64,000 nt of DNA from NCBI RefSeq assembly GCF_041248615.1, contig NZ_CP158426.1, one strand, 5' to 3'. Origin of the DNA: Escherichia coli (lineage in GTDB: Bacteria; Pseudomonadota; Gammaproteobacteria; Enterobacterales; Enterobacteriaceae). A program made the position numbers and the translations under genes. Position 1 is the first letter of the stretch, and every line of letters begins with the position of its first letter. Below the pieces are notes generated by a model. The model did no database searches, was not told where the DNA came from, and was given only the letters and a program-made list of their open reading frames with translations. Below, piece after piece: positions 19,013 to 36,600 of the stretch.

Positions 19013-19057
19013 AAATTCAATCACTTACACATCATTAAGTCAGTGACAAAAATCACA

Positions 19058-19090
19058 CTTGGAATTACTTGGAATATTTTCTTGGAATAT
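19058..19090. repeat. Three direct CTTGGAAT repeats in the attL arm (putative Int/Xis arm sites)
   Basis: CTTGGAATTACTTGGAATATTTTCTTGGAATATTTTC overlapping the int 3' end. Confidence 0.4.
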
Positions 19091-20090
19091 TTTCAGGTAA
19101 CGGGACATCAAGTGTTGGTGAAACTTTAACCTTCCTGTCATAGATTAGCACTTGCCCTTCGGTTTTGTGACCAGAGAAAAGTTGCTTATCCCGGCTGCTT
19201 CCTTCATAGTCTGAAATTCCTTTCGCCTTCAGATCATGAAAGGTGAAGTCGGTTAAAATACCTGAAATTTTTCCAGCACGATTTCTTGCATCTACCCACA
19301 TTTCGTTAAAGCCTTTGTACATATATCGGTTGCCGTATTGATTGCTGATCACATAGGCAGATTTTGGTAACTGTTTTGCTTTTTCGATCGCTGCCTGTAA
19401 TCGTGGACTCCATGCTTTTATCTGTTTTTTTCCGGTTTTCCCTTGCTGGATGAATATCCCGTCGTTTCCAATCTGTTCCCATTTCAGCGATAACACATCG
19501 GAAACCCTCGCTGCACACAGATAGGCAATTTCCATTGCGATAAAAACAGGAAGAGGTGCAACGCTTAATACTGCCTGGTATTCTTTGTCGGTTACATATC
19601 GTTCGCGGTTTTTGGCCTTGAATTTACTTACACCTGCACATGGGTTAGCCTTCACGTACCCTCGCTCATACCCCCAACTGTAAACACGGGACATACTGCT
19701 TTTTTCATGGTTGGCTTGCGTTTTACTCTGCTCCCCTCTTTTGTCCATGTATCGACGGATGTGTTCTGGTTTTATGGAATCCGCTGGTACCTTACCGAAT
19801 ACGGCAAGCAACTTTTTTTGATGTTGCAGATAATCTTTTTGTGTTCTTGGACTAAGGTCACTGTAATAGGCGCTGGCGAGGAATTTTTCCCACAAGCGAC
19901 CGAATGTCATTGCACGATCGCGATTATTTACAGTTTCCTCATACTTTTTCCATAAAGCAGCTAAACCATCCTTGATGGCGGTTAGTGTGACAGATTCTCT
20001 GGATGTTGGTTTCCATACATAACTATATTTATTTGGGTATACATTTGGAGGTAATTTTTCGTGTTCAGGATTTTTCCTTCGTCTTCCCAT
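19065..20090 (-). CDS. Phage tyrosine integrase
   Basis: 341-aa ORF adjacent to attL; C-terminal catalytic region with conserved R...H..R...Y spacing. Confidence 0.9.
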   Translation of the reverse strand: MGRRRKNPEHEKLPPNVYPNKYSYVWKPTSRESVTLTAIKDGLAALWKKYEETVNNRDRAMTFGRLWEKFLASAYYSDLSPRTQKDYLQHQKKLLAVFGKVPADSIKPEHIRRYMDKRGEQSKTQANHEKSSMSRVYSWGYERGYVKANPCAGVSKFKAKNRERYVTDKEYQAVLSVAPLPVFIAMEIAYLCAARVSDVLSLKWEQIGNDGIFIQQGKTGKKQIKAWSPRLQAAIEKAKQLPKSAYVISNQYGNRYMYKGFNEMWVDARNRAGKISGILTDFTFHDLKAKGISDYEGSSRDKQLFSGHKTEGQVLIYDRKVKVSPTLDVPLPENIPRKYSK

Positions 20091-23432: not shown

Positions 23433-23490
23433 AAAAAGGGCGGCAGAGCAGTCACGGAGTAAAACTGATACCGCCAAACGTCACCAGAAA
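23433..23490 (-). ncRNA. dicF: DicF small RNA
   Basis: Minus strand reads TTTCTGGTGACGTTTGGCGGTATCAGTTTTACTCCGTGACTGCTCTGCCGCCCTTTTT, matching DicF from memory, with intrinsic terminator; lies between ydfC and dicB. Confidence 0.7.
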
Positions 23491-25840: not shown

Positions 25841-27000
25841 CTGACAATAGCCATATCGAATCGCTTCCGGCAACTCGTGAGGAAAAAGATTCGGTATCAG
25901 AAGAGGTGAGTATGGCTAACGCCTGGCTCAGATTATGGCATGACATGCCAAATGACCCTAAGTGGCGAACAATTGCCAGGGTGTCAGGGCAGCCAATTGC
26001 AACAGTGATGGCAGTGTATATCCACCTCCTGGTGAGCGCGTCACGAAATGTCACGCGAGGTCACATTGATGTCACGACAGAAGATTTGGCAAGTGCGCTC
26101 GACGTGACAGAAGAGGTAATTGATTCAATTTTGCAGACGATGCAGGGGCGGGTACTTGATGGTGATTTAATCACTGGATGGGAAAAACGCCAGGTGCTTA
26201 AAGAGGACAACGGCAATATTTCGCAAACCGCAAAATCTCCTGCAGAGCGCAAGAGGGCGCAGCGAGAGAGGGAAAGAAAGCGGGAACAAAATGGCGATTG
26301 TCACGGCGCGTCACGAAATGTCACGCACATGTCACGACGAGTCACGACAGATAAAGATACAGATAAAGATACAGATAAAGATACAGATACAGATCAAGAA
26401 GATCAAAACACTATGGTCCATGGCGTAAAAAACGCCACGAACCAGGCAGGGGATGTTCAGACCGTCAATCTTGGTCAGCCAGCAGGCACGACACCGGAAG
26501 CCGATTCAGCGTATGCGCTGAAAGCCGATTCGGGCGCTGTGCAGCAGGTGATGACCGCAAGGCCGGAGCAATCACACCAACTGCAGCAGCCTGAAGCCGA
26601 TTCCGCCATTCAGCGGGAAGCCGATCGGGTAGTCCCGGAAAACACCGGGCAGCCTGTGGGACGAGTAGATTATCCGGATGTGTTCGAACAGGTCTGGCGG
26701 GAATACCCGTTGCGTGCTGGGGCAAACCCGAAGAAATCCGCTTTCAGTGCTTGGAAGGCCAGATTACGCGAGGGGGTGCCACCAGAGGCCATGCTGGATG
26801 GTGTGAGGCGTTACGCAAGATACCTGGCGGCTACCGGGAAAACGGGAACGGAATTTGTTCAGCGAGCGACGACGTTTTTTGGACCGGACCGGAATTTTGA
26901 AAACCCCTGGTTTCTCCCGGTAAGCAGTACGAACAACCAGCGTTGTGTGAATCATATTTCTGAACCGGATACCGAAATTCCACCGGGCTTCAGGGGGTAA
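25837..27000 (+). CDS. Replication initiator (O-like N-terminus, DUF1376/YdaU-like C-terminus)
   Basis: 387-aa ORF; N-terminal ANAWLRLWHDMPNDPKWRTIARVSG; iteron arrays inside the coding sequence; DKDT repeats. Confidence 0.7.
   Translation: MTDNSHIESLPATREEKDSVSEEVSMANAWLRLWHDMPNDPKWRTIARVSGQPIATVMAVYIHLLVSASRNVTRGHIDVTTEDLASALDVTEEVIDSILQTMQGRVLDGDLITGWEKRQVLKEDNGNISQTAKSPAERKRAQRERERKREQNGDCHGASRNVTHMSRRVTTDKDTDKDTDKDTDTDQEDQNTMVHGVKNATNQAGDVQTVNLGQPAGTTPEADSAYALKADSGAVQQVMTARPEQSHQLQQPEADSAIQREADRVVPENTGQPVGRVDYPDVFEQVWREYPLRAGANPKKSAFSAWKARLREGVPPEAMLDGVRRYARYLAATGKTGTEFVQRATTFFGPDRNFENPWFLPVSSTNNQRCVNHISEPDTEIPPGFRG
26040..26385. repeat. Phage origin: two GTCACG iteron arrays plus 3x12-bp AT-rich repeats
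   Basis: GTCACG at 26040, 26050, 26060 (GTCACA), 26071 and at 26300, 26310, 26320, 26331, 26341 (10-11 bp phasing); GATAAAGATACA x3 at 26350-26385. Confidence 0.65.
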
Positions 27001-27040
27001 GTGTGTATTTCTGGTCATGAGGTAATTTTCAGGAGGGCTT

Positions 27041-27463
27041 GTGGCAAAAGTTTTTACACAAGAAGAGCGGGAAAAAATTAAAGGGCAGGTTCTTGAACTC
27101 GTACGCCAGAGTGGGCGCGAGACGTTACGACAACTGGAAGCTAAAACTGGGGCAACAAGATATCTGATGAGCGTTCTGGCCAGAGAGCTGGTTGCCAGTG
27201 GCGATGTATACAACTCTGGTTACGGGTTATTCCCGTCTGAACAGGCGCGTAAGGACTGGCAAAATGCCCGTAAAAAGCTCTCAAGGGCAAAGCTGAAGAA
27301 ACCATCTGCGGTTGATCCGGACCTTATCTGGTCATTACCTGATGGAGAAATACGTCGTTACGACAGGCGTCATAATATAATTTGTACTGAGTGTCGTAAA
27401 AGCGAAGTTATGCAGCGGATATTGTCGTTTTATCAGGGGGATGTTCGGTATTTTTTGAAGTGA
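27041..27463 (+). CDS. Hypothetical protein, possible winged-helix
   Basis: 140-aa ORF after the replication gene; C-terminal CxxC; function unclear. Confidence 0.45.
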   Translation: MAKVFTQEEREKIKGQVLELVRQSGRETLRQLEAKTGATRYLMSVLARELVASGDVYNSGYGLFPSEQARKDWQNARKKLSRAKLKKPSAVDPDLIWSLPDGEIRRYDRRHNIICTECRKSEVMQRILSFYQGDVRYFLK

Positions 27464-27701
27464 CGAGATTAAAGTGCATTAGTTCAGATGTAAATTGACA
27501 TTTTGTGGCACAGGGTAGAGCTAGCGTGGTTGTCCGCTTTGTGCCAAAAGCAGACATTGATAACATTGAGATATGTTAATTTATAGGGAGCAGCTCAAGG
27601 CCCACTGGAACTTCCAGTTTTTGCCCCTGAAACCGTTCCCAATGAGCACTTCCATCTGAAGACTGCGCAGTCTTAGTTTTCGTTGCCTTTAGTTTATCCC
27701 T

Positions 27702-29036
27702 TTATGATACCGATAAAAACTTTGTTGCAATTTCTGCTGCCGTTTTCTCCATGCTGGGATATACAGTGCTTTCGGATATATTAAGCTGCGCCAGCTCTTC
27801 CAGAATTTTATTTTTGTTCGCTATCTCCACTCTGTTAAGAGGAAACTCAGCATCTGTTTCCGGTAAAATGGGATCAAGTCCGAACAGAAGAAAAGCTCCT
27901 GCCTGAGATTGTATGCGTTCATTATTTATTTTAGCCTTAAGGAAAACAACTTTCCTTAAGTCATCAGGAATTATTCTGTTTCTGAAATATGATTTTTCAT
28001 TCTGTATAAGGTCTGCAAGTTTATCCGTGAGTTCAGATAACTCCATATTACCTTTTCTGGAATCAGAGGAGGACAATTTTTCCAACTCTTCGTAAGATAA
28101 AAGTGATAAGTTTGCTATACAGCTCACTGTATCTGAGTCGAAATATTTAATTTTCTTTCTATTTGTTGAAAACGAAATCACCTGTCCGTTTTCATCGGGG
28201 TTCGAACAGCAAGCAAAATATAATGCTATCAGTGGGTTAGATGTAATGTCTAAGAGTCTTGTAGGCAAGCCATAATGCTGCATGCGGACAAGTTTATCAA
28301 TCGTAAATTTATCCTCCTTAAATTCATTTGGTCTTGCGCTGAGTATTTCACGTACTAAATCAGATTCTGAAGCAAGATGCCTGTACGTCCCGTTTTGATT
28401 TTTTCTGTAAAGAGAGGGGACAAGCTCATATGAGCTTTTAGAGTGTCCACGATAAAAGGTAATGAGACCATCACGAAAGTTTTTCTTTATGAAATTAAGA
28501 TAATCTATAATATTCTCGACTACTGGGTATGTTTGTTTTTTTAATTTGATTGTACCTTTCAGTTGGCTATTTTGTTTGTTTAAACCAAGTGATTCCAGAA
28601 CAATATTTAAATCCTTATTTTTTACTGCCCAATGTGTACGACTTAACCCGAAAGATCCTAGCCCTAGGGTTTCTTTATATAATGTCGTTTGGGGATTCGT
28701 TATTTCTCCAAAATTATGATTAATCTTGAAAGAAAATAAAATATCGCCACCATCTTTACGTAAGTTTCTTATTTCCCCAAGTCTGATCCTGATGTACTTG
28801 TTTGTATCATATTCATCATCTTTTGTATAAGTTTCGGTCATGAACAATACTGGTAGCTTGGCGAGTTCTCTTAAGGTATCGGGTCTTATTGGTGTTAATT
28901 TACTGTAAATATCGCTTGGGGTGCCTTCCAGCATGCGGGACATCGAGAATCTTTCCTCGCCTTCTTTAAGCCCAGGGTCCATACACGGCCAGCGGTCAAA
29001 AACGTCCGGTTCTCCGGCCATGATTAAGCTAAACAT
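27702..29036 (-). CDS. FRG-domain protein (candidate anti-phage/abortive-infection moron)
   Basis: 444-aa ORF on the opposite strand to neighbours, in ~1.9 kb AT-rich block; motifs FYRGHS, LVPSLYR, QHYGLPTRLLDITSNPLIALYFA fit the FRG domain as I recall it; palindromic hairpin at its 3' end. Confidence 0.6.
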   Translation of the reverse strand: MFSLIMAGEPDVFDRWPCMDPGLKEGEERFSMSRMLEGTPSDIYSKLTPIRPDTLRELAKLPVLFMTETYTKDDEYDTNKYIRIRLGEIRNLRKDGGDILFSFKINHNFGEITNPQTTLYKETLGLGSFGLSRTHWAVKNKDLNIVLESLGLNKQNSQLKGTIKLKKQTYPVVENIIDYLNFIKKNFRDGLITFYRGHSKSSYELVPSLYRKNQNGTYRHLASESDLVREILSARPNEFKEDKFTIDKLVRMQHYGLPTRLLDITSNPLIALYFACCSNPDENGQVISFSTNRKKIKYFDSDTVSCIANLSLLSYEELEKLSSSDSRKGNMELSELTDKLADLIQNEKSYFRNRIIPDDLRKVVFLKAKINNERIQSQAGAFLLFGLDPILPETDAEFPLNRVEIANKNKILEELAQLNISESTVYPSMEKTAAEIATKFLSVS

Positions 29037-29324
29037 CGCAATCTCCTAAATTTACTTGCTAAAGTCAGTGTACTTTTATCATGTTGCTTCATTGTGTATG
29101 AAAGTAACATTGGTTGTCCATGCTCGTTTGTCTCTCATAATTCACAAATTTGCGAATATTTTTTATAAAAAATTCAAAACAGATAGGTTGACACAATCAA
29201 AATTCACAAAGGGCACCTGCTTCTAATGTGGTTACGGCCCGATCATACGGGCAATGTCTTTCCATTATTGAAAACTCCGGGATCAACCATGATATATGAA
29301 GTCTCTTGCTATCCAGTTAAGTAA

Positions 29325-29615
29325 ATGTCTGCTTCTCGCTCAAAGCGGGCTAGAAGGTTAGCTTGCGTCGGACTTGGCGTATTTAAAGAAGTGCTGGTGG
29401 TGACAGGTTATTATGTTCCATTTCTACAGAACAAAATCACAGAAACTATACCCAATAGTTGTATTGAATCACTGACGAGACATCCTCATATTTATCAGGA
29501 CTGGTGTACGTCCAATACAGGAGGTTGTGGTGCTGGTTCTCAAATGTGCGCTGGCTATTGCTGCTGTAATGGCAATTTATTGCCTTGCTGTTGTTCTTAT
29601 GGATCGCCTTTCTGA
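29325..29615 (+). CDS. Possible small Cys-rich protein (uncertain)
   Basis: 96-aa ORF ending GGCGAGSQMCAGYCCCNGNLLPCCCSYGSPF; no convincing RBS; divergent from the FRG gene. Confidence 0.25.
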   Translation: MSASRSKRARRLACVGLGVFKEVLVVTGYYVPFLQNKITETIPNSCIESLTRHPHIYQDWCTSNTGGCGAGSQMCAGYCCCNGNLLPCCCSYGSPF

Positions 29616-29830
29616 TTGATTTTATATTGGCGAGGTGACGTGAGTTAAGTAGAATTGCTGCGGGTGCTTGAGGCTATCTGCCTCAGGCATGAACACCAAA
29701 GGCAGATAGAGAAAAGCCCCAGTTAACATTACGCGTCCTGCAAGACGCTTAACATTAATCTGAGGCTCAATCTATGAACGGCAAATCTAGGTTAGCCTCT
29801 TACGTGCCGAAAGGCAAGGAGAAGCAGGCT

Positions 29831-29986
29831 ATGAAGCAGCAAAAGGCGATGTTAATCGCCCTGATCGTCATCTGTTTAACCGTCATTGTGACGGCACTGG
29901 TAACGAGGAAAGACCTCTGCGAGGTACGAATCCGAACCGGCCAGACGGAGGTCGCTGTCTTCACAGCTTACGAACCTGAGGAGTAA
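29831..29986 (+). CDS. hokD: Hok/Gef-family type I toxin (HokD-like), with overlapping mok frame from 29774
   Basis: MKQQKAMLIALIVICLTVIVTALVTRKDLCEVRIRTGQTEVAVFTAYEPEE; upstream leader stem-loop CTATCTGCCT...AGGCAGATAG. Confidence 0.85.
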   Translation: MKQQKAMLIALIVICLTVIVTALVTRKDLCEVRIRTGQTEVAVFTAYEPEE

Positions 29987-30129
29987 GAGACCTGGCGGGG
30001 GAGAAATCCCTCGCCACCTCTGATGTGTCAGGCATCCTCAACGCACCCGCACTTAACCCGCTTCGGCGTTTTTTCCGTTGATTAACTCTAGTTATTAGAG
30101 AACCGAACTTTTATTGATGGGGCAGGGAG

Positions 30130-30522
30130 ATGAAGAAACTTGTTTTAGTCGCAGGTGTAATGATTGCAACAGTAATGTTGGGAGGGTGTGCAGCAAAGGT
30201 CGATCCAGCGTTGAAAGCAGAAGCAATGAAGCCACTAACATGTAATGATGAAAAGCAATGTGACTTTTATTGGAAACGAGCGCAATTCTGGTTGGCTAAT
30301 AATTCCTCATGGAAAATTCAAACGGCGACAGACACGCTAATTTCCACTTATAATCCCTCTCCAAATAGTCCATTCCTCGCTTATCAAGTGAGTAAAATGC
30401 CAAATGAAGATGGATCCTCAAGAATTTTCATCAAGCCTTTTTGCGATAATATGTTTGGCTGTCAACCAAACCCCTATCAGGCAGTTGTTTCCTTTAAAAA
30501 CTTCGTTAAAACAGGGCAGTAG
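30130..30522 (+). CDS. Prophage lipoprotein
   Basis: 130-aa ORF with lipobox LGGC after a hydrophobic signal; Cys-containing mature part. Confidence 0.6.
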   Translation: MKKLVLVAGVMIATVMLGGCAAKVDPALKAEAMKPLTCNDEKQCDFYWKRAQFWLANNSSWKIQTATDTLISTYNPSPNSPFLAYQVSKMPNEDGSSRIFIKPFCDNMFGCQPNPYQAVVSFKNFVKTGQ

Positions 30523-30720
30523 TGTATAGCTTGGACGATAAATTATTAGTGAAAACGCCGTAAACCCTCACCCAATGTGGACTAAGCCTATCAAACATGA
30601 CTGTGATGATTAGTCCGTAGTTGTTGCCTATGAAATCTGGATTGAGTCAGGGTTTAATCCAATAATTATTCTATCGTTCCTTTACAAGTCTGGTATATTA
30701 CTTTCAGTTTGTTTTAGCAT

Positions 30721-33295: not shown

Positions 33296-33401
33296 GTGCC
33301 ACTTATCTCGGATAGACATGGTGAATGCGCTAGTGGAGGAGATAAGGGTGATTTTTGAATGCTTGCAACATTGATTTCGTAACGTTATTATCCTGCGCCC
33401 G

Positions 33402-33477
33402 GCCCTTTAGCTCAGTGGTGAGAGCGAGCGACTCATAATCGCCAGGTCGCTGGTTCAAATCCAGCAAGGGCCACCAG
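33402..33477 (+). tRNA. tRNA with CAT anticodon (Met or Ile2, ileZ-like)
   Basis: GGCCCTTTAGCTCAGTGGTGAGAGC...CTCATAATCGC...GGTTCAAATCCAGCAAGGGCCACCA. Confidence 0.8.
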
Positions 33478-33478
33478 C

Positions 33479-33555
33479 CGCCACTAGCTCATCAGGAAAG
33501 AGCGTCAACCCTTTAAGTTGAGTGTGCGAGGTTCGAGTCCCCGGTGGCGGTCCAG
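33479..33555 (+). tRNA. tRNA-like gene, anticodon ambiguous (loop CCTTTAA, nominal TTT)
   Basis: 7-bp acceptor stem CCGCCAC/GTGGCGG, D and T arms present, CCA end; atypical C at position 33; T-stem has one A-C mismatch. Confidence 0.5.
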
Positions 33556-33556
33556 T

Positions 33557-33633
<77 letters not shown>

Positions 33634-33635
33634 AT

Positions 33636-33711
<76 letters not shown>

Positions 33712-36060: not shown

Positions 36061-36600
36061 TTAGAAACTGCGTGGAGCTGTGGAAAGAATGGATGTCAGT
36101 TCTTCCTTCGATAAATCCCAGCTTCGATTTACAGCGTCAATTTTCTTAAACTCATCAAGCATTGCGTTATAGAGATGTTCTGTACGTGAATGAGTATTGG
36201 CAATGGGCTGTTTCTGTTCGGGGAAGCGATCAATTTTCTGATATGCCTCAATGATACTGAAGTAATCGCATTCATTATGACCGTCGAAACCTGGGAGCTG
36301 AATTTCCCCATCATGTATTTTTAGATGATGGTCACGGACTAATTCTTTTTGCTCGTCATCACTAAGTTTCCTGAAAGCATTGGAAAGTCCGCGGTACATA
36401 TTCAAGACAGCAGTAACAAAATCACGATCTTCTTTACTTGGTTCATCAACATCCAAATGTGAATATTCGGCCTTCATAACCCAATCATTACCAGATGACA
36501 CAGCATATTTTACAAGCTGTGGATCAATATCAGTTTCGATACCTAGGTGGATGGCAATGTCACATAACAAAATGGTATTGATTTTATCCTTAATATCCAT
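36061..36600 (-). CDS. YfbU-family (UPF0304)-like protein, opposite-strand moron
   Basis: 179-aa ORF; resemblance to E. coli YfbU in the C-terminal half is by recollection only. Confidence 0.45.
   Translation of the reverse strand: MDIKDKINTILLCDIAIHLGIETDIDPQLVKYAVSSGNDWVMKAEYSHLDVDEPSKEDRDFVTAVLNMYRGLSNAFRKLSDDEQKELVRDHHLKIHDGEIQLPGFDGHNECDYFSIIEAYQKIDRFPEQKQPIANTHSRTEHLYNAMLDEFKKIDAVNRSWDLSKEELTSILSTAPRSF

Follow-up and report, generated by a model that had tools for sequence, protein, structure and literature searches.

The gene that is described here, an open reading frame (ORF) for an FRG domain protein on the minus strand of a 64,000-nucleotide stretch of Escherichia coli DNA (RefSeq assembly GCF_041248615.1, contig NZ_CP158426.1; the whole stretch is referred to as the window, and unlabelled coordinates are positions within it), is best introduced by way of two bodies of earlier work, one on the FRG family and one on the Metis systems. 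In the work of the Aravind group, Frg is assigned to the ADP-ribosyltransferase (ART) superfamily, with a predicted role as an antiviral effector that possibly hydrolyses nicotinamide adenine dinucleotide (an NADase); an independent survey restates the ART-superfamily class. FRG proteins are also catalogued as PDC-S15, one of the 145 “phage defence candidates” (PDC) of PADLOC: the genes of these candidates were nominated because they occur within defence systems that were already known [BREX, DISARM and type I restriction-modification], they entered PADLOC untested, and a later study left the PDC systems out as unvalidated. In a Pseudomonas aeruginosa modelling preprint, PDC-S15 is among the strongest predictors of phage infectivity, a result that is correlative only. 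The original prediction for this locus, which was made from the letters of the DNA, knew of no characterised defence system with the architecture of our gene; this is right in that PDC-S15 is uncharacterised, but the family had already been catalogued by PADLOC and an effector role had already been predicted for FRG.

In Metis (also described as PUA-Cal-HAD, with the components MisA and MisB), a PUA-like domain binds N6-methyl-deoxyadenosine monophosphate (m6dAMP) from Dam-methylated host DNA that has been degraded by the phage; the ligand-bound domain activates a fused metallophosphatase, whereupon NAD+ or deoxynucleoside triphosphates (dNTPs) are destroyed, while the HAD partner (MisB) clears the basal ligand. 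Fusions of the same PUA-like family with TIR, HEPN and DrHyd effectors are reported as well, mostly without a HAD partner.

Here, we have found that the protein is composed of two parts, an N-terminal domain (the N-domain), which has a PUA-like fold in the structure model, and an FRG-family core; that the N-domain is a module that also occurs on many other immune effectors; that the gene, together with its own non-coding DNA, forms a cassette in a prophage slot of variable content; and that its homologues recur in other mobile slots. On the strength of the Pfam FRG match, the PDC-S15 match, the homologues in mobile slots and the variable cargo of the slot, we consider it likely that the gene defends against phage, as had been proposed when it was singled out as a candidate single-gene anti-phage moron. 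What is new in the present analysis is the precise cassette, the N-domain as a widely reused, putatively sensing PUA-like module, the assignment of the C-terminus to the FRG core, and a candidate mechanism that is linked to that of Metis. The coordinates of all features are collected in Table 1.

The ORF, which runs counter to the transcription of its surroundings, as had been claimed (the genes on both flanks are on the plus strand), is annotated in RefSeq as “FRG domain-containing protein” (WP_021549781.1, identical protein), and its whole length is covered by a match to PHROG 4962 (E 2e-83). Full-length homologues of 40-88% identity are found in Enterobacterales, Aeromonas and Rhizobiales, and the ratio of nonsynonymous to synonymous substitution rates (dN/dS) against the copy of phage Tritos is 0.37; the ORF is therefore real and not a chance frame, and it is under purifying selection. 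The Tritos protein, which is encoded at the same genome position of a deposited complete genome, is 95.7% identical; other full-length homologues occur in Peduovirus P22H1 and in phage PhiR11_1. Copies of the gene that are 100% identical are present in ten genomes, and at least 80% of the block at 27464-29324 is present in 40 of the 5426 complete E. coli genomes, i.e. the gene is rare.

The same observations bear on the possibility that the gene is a decaying remnant without current function, which could be suspected from the integrase of the prophage, frameshifted in genomes that are identical to this one, and from the truncated, “partial” copies of the protein that are found in databases. 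We regard this possibility as very improbable: the 444-codon frame is intact in AT-rich DNA, which is prone to stop codons, all of the residues that are invariant in the family have been kept, and the ten identical copies, the dN/dS value and the nearly identical protein of the Tritos genome all argue for a maintained gene.

The translation contains FYRGHS, LVPSLYR and QHYGLPTRLLDITSNPLIALYFA, the motifs from which an FRG domain had been recognised, and the corresponding Pfam profile (PF08867) matches significantly, over model positions 3-92 of 94. In PADLOC, the PDC-S15 model PDLC04936 matches residues 166-440 with E 7e-99 (profile positions 17-296 of 300), with thirteen further PDC-S15 models also matching; these are scores from a scan of the PADLOC-DB hidden Markov models (HMMs), without the coverage cut-offs that PADLOC itself applies. 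The PADLOC check that had been suggested for this gene has thus returned a single-gene candidate. Since the PDC-S15 HMMs span residues 166-440, the C-terminal region belongs to the conserved FRG core, and is not a region that matches nothing, as had been supposed of both termini; for the N-terminus, the supposition holds at the level of sequence but not at the level of fold. Compared with PDC-S15 as catalogued, our protein is alike in that its core matches the profile almost end to end, and in that one gene on a mobile element makes up the whole unit; it is unlike in that the PDC-S15 models leave out the N-terminal 165 residues, so that the sensor-like domain is not a part of the definition.

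The invariant residues of the core include R196, G197, H198, S208, R211, D263, S301-D302-T303, Q378 and G380, and every family-invariant residue is kept in the protein. The succession of the invariant R196/H198, S301-D-T-V-S305 and Q378 is the one expected of an ART triad; no canonical R-S-E or H-Y-E triad can be assigned from the FRG alignment, and in the structure comparison, the match of the core to the ART fold is marginal. The protein therefore differs in these two respects from the ART toxins and effectors (RES, DarT, TreX and pertussis-like ArtA), and the assignment of the FRG core to the ART superfamily, which comes from the literature and was not reproduced here, is adopted only weakly.

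The whole protein has been modelled with AlphaFold2 from an alignment of 36 sequences, with a predicted local distance difference test (pLDDT) of 85 and a predicted template modelling score (pTM) of 0.84; the pLDDT of the N-domain is 89. The structural neighbours of the modelled N-domain are EVE domains [2ar1, 2gbs, THYN1 with 5-methylcytosine (5mC) DNA, and PH1033; 7.6-7.1], YTH readers of N6-methyladenosine (m6A) (6.9-5.6), an ASCH domain (6.1), the type IV enzyme VcaM4I (5.8), the N-terminal domains of archaeal McrB (4.8 and 4.6) and PD-T4-3 (4.5). Because these neighbours are EVE, YTH and ASCH domains, the modelled N-domain has a PUA-like beta-barrel of the EVE/YTH/ASCH type, i.e. a base-reader fold. 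A search of NCBIfam with the whole protein and with the N-domain has returned nothing relevant.

A fold of this type raises the question of whether the ligand is a polymer. The protein could be a modification-dependent reader of phage DNA or RNA, comparable to the type IV systems, with an FRG core that ADP-ribosylates nucleic acid or protein in the manner of DarT; the best structural neighbours of the N-domain do include readers that are bound to DNA or RNA (THYN1 with 5mC, YTH with m6A, VcaM4I, McrB, PD-T4-3), and the ART superfamily does include enzymes that modify macromolecules. The output domain is, however, of a different kind from that of type IV restriction (the EVE-HNH enzyme VcaM4I, archaeal McrB, PD-T4-3), since it is FRG, and no match to a nuclease (HNH, PD-(D/E)XK or GIY-YIG) or to an McrBC-type NTPase has been found in the 444-residue protein with Pfam or PADLOC. 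The relatives of the N-domain speak against a polymer ligand in the same way: its partners are mostly of the metabolite-depleting or abortive-infection (Abi) type (TIR, SEFIR, PNP, kinase, HEPN), HNH, Mrr or McrB nucleases occur in 0 of the 63 sampled carriers, and a fusion with a cGAS/DncV-like nucleotidyltransferase (CD-NTase), described below, points to a small-molecule ligand; in addition, NADase activity is the function preferred for FRG in the literature. On balance, we find a reader of polymeric nucleic acid unlikely.

The distribution of the N-domain has been explored with a profile search, which has revealed 877 clusters at 50% identity, to which a word-indexed version of the search added little. 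Sixty-three diverse carriers of the N-domain, of at least 260 residues each, have been scanned with Pfam for partner domains. The commonest partner is a TIR domain of the CAP12/Pycsar type (17 of the 63 carriers), followed by FRG itself (13), Abi_C (6), TIR_2 (5), protein kinase (4) and TIR (3), while SEFIR, PNP_UDP_1, KAP NTPase, Schlafen AlbA_2, EAD2 and a DncV-like NTase occur once each; a Foldseek search of AFDB50 has added nucleoside 2-deoxyribosyltransferase-like and NYN domains to the list of partners. PADLOC scans of the carriers are in agreement, with PDC-S35 on the TIR halves, PD-T4-6-like kinases, and an effector of the “PN-superfamily” model of the cyclic-oligonucleotide-based anti-phage signalling system (CBASS); in three carriers that combine the N-domain with TIR, every TIR half matches PDC-S35. 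Across all of these effector contexts, residues R34, E37, T39, E68, R133, H135 and W136 are invariant or nearly so; their composition (arginine, histidine, tryptophan, glutamate, threonine) is suited to a nucleotide pocket, not to an interface with one particular effector. Two clusters of E. coli proteins that are annotated as “partial FRG” (P0271 and P0272; 152-159 residues, 60-79 member sequences) consist of the N-domain alone; they may stem from truncated alleles or, artefactually, from the ends of contigs.

One metagenomic protein is of particular use for the nature of the ligand: P0189 (L008:6001-8283; 760 residues) is a single chain of a CBASS-type CD-NTase (residues 1-307), the N-domain (312-444) and an FRG core (478-750), and its CD-NTase part matches a PADLOC cyclase model with E 1e-112. 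Such a fusion fits a small nucleotide as the ligand of the N-domain. The gene of P0189 is flanked by transposase genes.

P0189 could also be taken as a sign that our protein serves as an orphan effector in signalling of the CBASS or Pycsar type, in which its N-domain would bind a cyclic nucleotide made by a cyclase that is encoded elsewhere, and the two partners of the N-domain that resemble effectors of such systems, i.e. the CAP12/Pycsar-type TIR, which is the commonest of all, and the CBASS “PN-superfamily” effector, would agree with it. A cyclase domain, however, occurs in only one of the 63 sampled carriers; neither a CD-NTase nor a pyrimidine cyclase has been found in or beside the cassette, or beside the FRG homologues in prophages and in a genomic island; the genes that combine the N-domain with TIR stand alone, with no cyclase beside those that have been examined; and cargo that depended on a cyclase in trans would fail after transfer to a new host. 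We consider this explanation quite improbable. The protein differs likewise from TIR-SAVED, TIR-STING and PycTIR, with which it shares no sensor (its own is not SAVED, STING or a domain that binds cyclic nucleoside monophosphates) and no cyclase partner; the likeness, which extends to PDC-S35, is that the same N-domain is carried by a CAP12/Pycsar-type TIR in the 17 relatives mentioned above, and the presence of one N-domain on both TIR and FRG points to FRG and the TIR NADase as outputs that can replace each other.

The comparison with type I Metis is closer. In both cases, an N-terminal PUA-like ligand domain (predicted in our protein) is followed by a C-terminal effector, in both cases the effector destroys an essential nucleotide cofactor (again as predicted here), and both occur in E. 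coli. The differences are that the effector is FRG and not a calcineurin-like metallophosphatase (there is no PF00149 match in the protein), that no HAD partner gene is present, the neighbours being a Ren-like gene and hok/sok, and that the conserved residues follow another linear order in the N-domain than in the PUA-Cal pocket; for these three reasons the protein is not a member of Metis. The distinction between the N-domain and its Metis counterpart has been drawn from the published pocket residues; among the sampled relatives of the N-domain, no carrier of a metallophosphatase has been found.

The borders of the mobile unit have been mapped with blastn, by comparing the window at 26600-30550 with six prophages that have the same flanks but other inserts: homology on the left stops at 27557-27562 and restarts on the right at 29322-29325, and the mobile unit is therefore about 1.76 kb long. 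It contains one gene, approximately 140 nt of DNA on the 3' side and approximately 285 nt on the 5' side, the latter of which presumably holds the gene's own promoter. The leftmost 100 nt or so of the block that had been delimited originally belong to the conserved flank, since the left homology reaches to 27557-27562. The description of the block as AT-rich has been borne out: the G+C fraction is 0.375 for the cassette and 0.372 for the ORF, compared to 0.479 for the whole window and 0.498 for positions 19000-60000, and in 400-nt windows across the block it ranges from 0.33 to 0.40. A perfect palindrome had been noticed at the 3' side of the gene, and it is indeed present; it does not make a convincing terminator, because the gene strand has no U-tract, the terminator scan did not flag it, and its folding energy is close to that of shuffled sequence (z 0.14 and -0.57), so that a role as the intrinsic terminator of the gene has been rejected.

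The gene is carried by a lambdoid, HK97-type prophage that is located at tRNA-Ser, beside mtfA, and the interval from the ren-like gene to hok/sok forms an exchange slot with sharp borders. Other prophages of E. coli have, in this slot, a SIR2-family protein (weak SIR2 matches in PADLOC), a DUF262 protein that resembles NsnA and PD-T4-2_A (E 9e-28), a DUF7380 protein (PADLOC PDC-S39, E 3e-102), a pair of NUDIX and HAD hydrolases of which the NUDIX matches PDC-S07, QueH, alone or together with a methyltransferase (for which no link to defence was found), a minus-strand alpha/beta hydrolase in Sp4 of O157, or small hypothetical genes, the last two without a PADLOC match.

Recurrence in mobile cargo slots, which had been proposed as a check, has been found in three settings. 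E. coli homologues of 60% and 45% identity are located in the portal-gpA interval of P2-like prophages. We take this interval to be the tin/old cargo position of P2. A Klebsiella homologue of 51% identity lies at a second cargo slot, among the tail genes of a P2-like prophage, and a Sinorhizobium homologue of 42% identity is part of an integrase-bounded island that also contains a radical-SAM gene, an MqsA-like antitoxin, a CAP12-type TIR protein, from which the N-domain is absent, and a DNA methyltransferase. In the portal-gpA slot (L009:8474-9902; L014-L017:7773-9183), the FRG homologues share their place with other cargo: one P2-like prophage has, beside the FRG homologue, an RVT_1 reverse transcriptase and two small ORFs with a retron-like look, and another has two genes without annotation, for 198 and 243 residues.

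Cargo genes need not be defence genes, and the gene could alternatively be a moron of another kind, such as a prophage-stabilising toxin, like the neighbouring hok/sok, or a factor with an effect on host physiology or lysogeny. It adjoins the hok/sok addiction module, and the slot also takes QueH, methyltransferases and small hypothetical genes without a clear defence role. A cognate antitoxin is nevertheless missing from the cassette, which has no antitoxin-like partner and no second conserved ORF, Rfam detecting only the sok RNA of hokD, outside it; moreover, the family was nominated from its embedding in defence systems, the partners of the N-domain are overwhelmingly immune effectors, and the P. 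aeruginosa phage-host model, although only correlative, ranks PDC-S15 among its top predictors. A non-defence role is thus improbable in our judgement.

Table 1. Positions of the FRG gene, its cassette and neighbouring features in the window.
Feature	Coordinates	Strand	Remarks
ORF of the FRG protein	27702-29036	-	444 residues and stop codon; ATG start
N-terminal domain, predicted ligand sensor	28572-29036	-	Residues 1 to ~155
FRG-family core, predicted effector	27717-28541	-	Residues 166-440; PDC-S15 HMM match
Pfam FRG (PF08867) segment	28191-28460	-	Residues 193-282; E 6e-22
Single-gene cargo cassette	~27563-29321		FRG gene and its own 5' and 3' non-coding DNA
AT-rich 5' region	29037-29321	-	Travels with the cassette; border from blastn
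Shine-Dalgarno AGGAG	29043-29047	-	6 nt before the ATG; read from the sequence
16-nt perfect palindrome AAGACTGCGCAGTCTT	27659-27674		Inside the cassette, 28 nt beyond the stop codon
Conserved left flank, one arm of the exchange site	27464-27562	+	Present whatever the cargo
Inverted repeat TTGTGGCACA / TGTGCCAAAA	27503-27512 / 27540-27549		27-nt spacer
AATTCA(C)AAA repeats	29139, 29170, 29201		Three copies at exact 31-nt spacing
Imperfect palindrome	29140-29157		Overlaps the AATTCA(C)AAA repeats
Weak promoter-like match (example)	29120-29091	-
Plus-strand ORF	29325-29615	+	96 codons
DUF977 gene, left neighbour	27041-27463	+	Matches the PHROG of Ren-like exclusion proteins
sok RNA of the sok/hokD locus, right neighbour	29662-29836	+	Rfam
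Prophage integrase	~19040-20090		L022:11577-12627
YfbU-family gene	~36061-36600	Opposite strand	L022:28598-29137; between lysis and HNH/terminase genes
DicF small RNA	23438-23489	-	Rfam
Four-tRNA cluster	33401-33707	+	Ile, Lys, Thr, Gly in RefSeq

Several additional features are located around the gene. The inverted repeat of the left flank is situated just past the ren-like gene. Upstream of the FRG gene, the regularly spaced AATTCA(C)AAA repeats could be an operator array or bent DNA. The plus-strand ORF begins exactly at the right border of the cassette; three phages conserve its region as DNA, no PHROG matches it, and neither RefSeq nor the records of three phages annotate it. It is probably non-coding DNA upstream of hok/sok. 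A divergent promoter region had been placed at the 5' side of the FRG gene; this has found no support, the promoter-like matches of the region occurring at chance frequency, and the idea of a divergent promoter that serves a plus-strand gene at this ORF has been rejected, as the ORF has neither a PHROG match nor an annotation. Farther away, a second opposite-strand gene, of the YfbU family, may be another moron; a DicF small RNA is encoded to the left; and the four-tRNA cluster directly follows the Q antiterminator gene.

Returning to the function of the FRG gene, the mechanism that we propose is that of a self-contained, one-protein abortive-infection module that would be exchangeable cargo of temperate phages. 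The PUA-like N-domain would bind a nucleotide or a modified nucleobase that appears or accumulates in infection; the binding would release the activity of the C-terminal FRG core, which would hydrolyse NAD+ or ADP-ribosylate a target; and the infected cell would stop before phage progeny are made. We propose, from the partners and the conserved residues of the N-domain, that its ligand may be a small nucleotide, and the consumption of NAD+ or the ADP-ribosylation of a target is what is predicted for the FRG core. The complete chain, from the sensing of the ligand through an NAD+-directed FRG activity to abortive infection, seems to us to have close to an even chance of being correct.

Several of our results weigh against this interpretation. 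None of the Pfam families, those of the PUA clan included, matches the N-domain in any of the 63 scanned carriers, and a sequence search of the PDB chains with the whole protein and with the N-domain has given no significant match (one chance-level match has E 0.96). The published pocket of PUA-Cal consists of R8, F9, R10, H23, W35, W38, K40, Y100 and Y101, whereas the conserved motif of our protein is RTHWAVK at positions 133-139; as this motif is placed otherwise than the PUA-Cal pocket, the N-domain may bind something quite different. In the FRG alignment, there is no glutamate at the third position, that of the “ExE” motif of ART enzymes, and no experimental test of any FRG protein has been found in the searchable literature. 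The promoter scan of the region has given 8 promoter-like matches where 6.7 are expected, i.e. the level of chance. Lastly, RefSeq genomes with an identical sequence across the region have an annotated frameshift in the prophage integrase: the prophage may be unable to excise in the strains concerned, and selection for the cargo in this lineage is therefore uncertain.

A wider form of the proposal may be formulated, which we put forward tentatively and ourselves find rather doubtful: the N-domain would represent a large, PUA-like family of “danger-nucleotide” sensors outside Pfam (at least 877 clusters at 50% identity), which would drive at least 10 types of immune effectors, TIR, FRG, HEPN, kinase, nucleosidase, SEFIR and KAP NTPase among them, upon recognition of an infection-derived nucleotide that is not necessarily m6dAMP; FRG would be a new class of NAD+-consuming or ADP-ribosylating effectors; and the prophage gene, with its single protein, would be the simplest case of a Metis-like immunity that forms a second line of its own, independent of Metis.

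The candidate is small and clonable, and the residues to mutate are R34 and W136 in the putative sensor and R196 and H198 in the FRG core; from the ren-like gene to hok/sok there is, moreover, a well-delimited site in which further cargo may be found. If the proposed mechanism is true, it would provide the first functional assignment for FRG, a widespread domain that has been without a function since its description in Pfam, and that PADLOC already scores in genome surveys. The recently discovered sensing of phage attack by bacteria, in which PUA-like domains bind modified or unusual nucleotides, would gain a second family of sensors and a new effector, and such a sensor and effector would be packed together in one 1.8-kb cassette that is exchanged by temperate phages.

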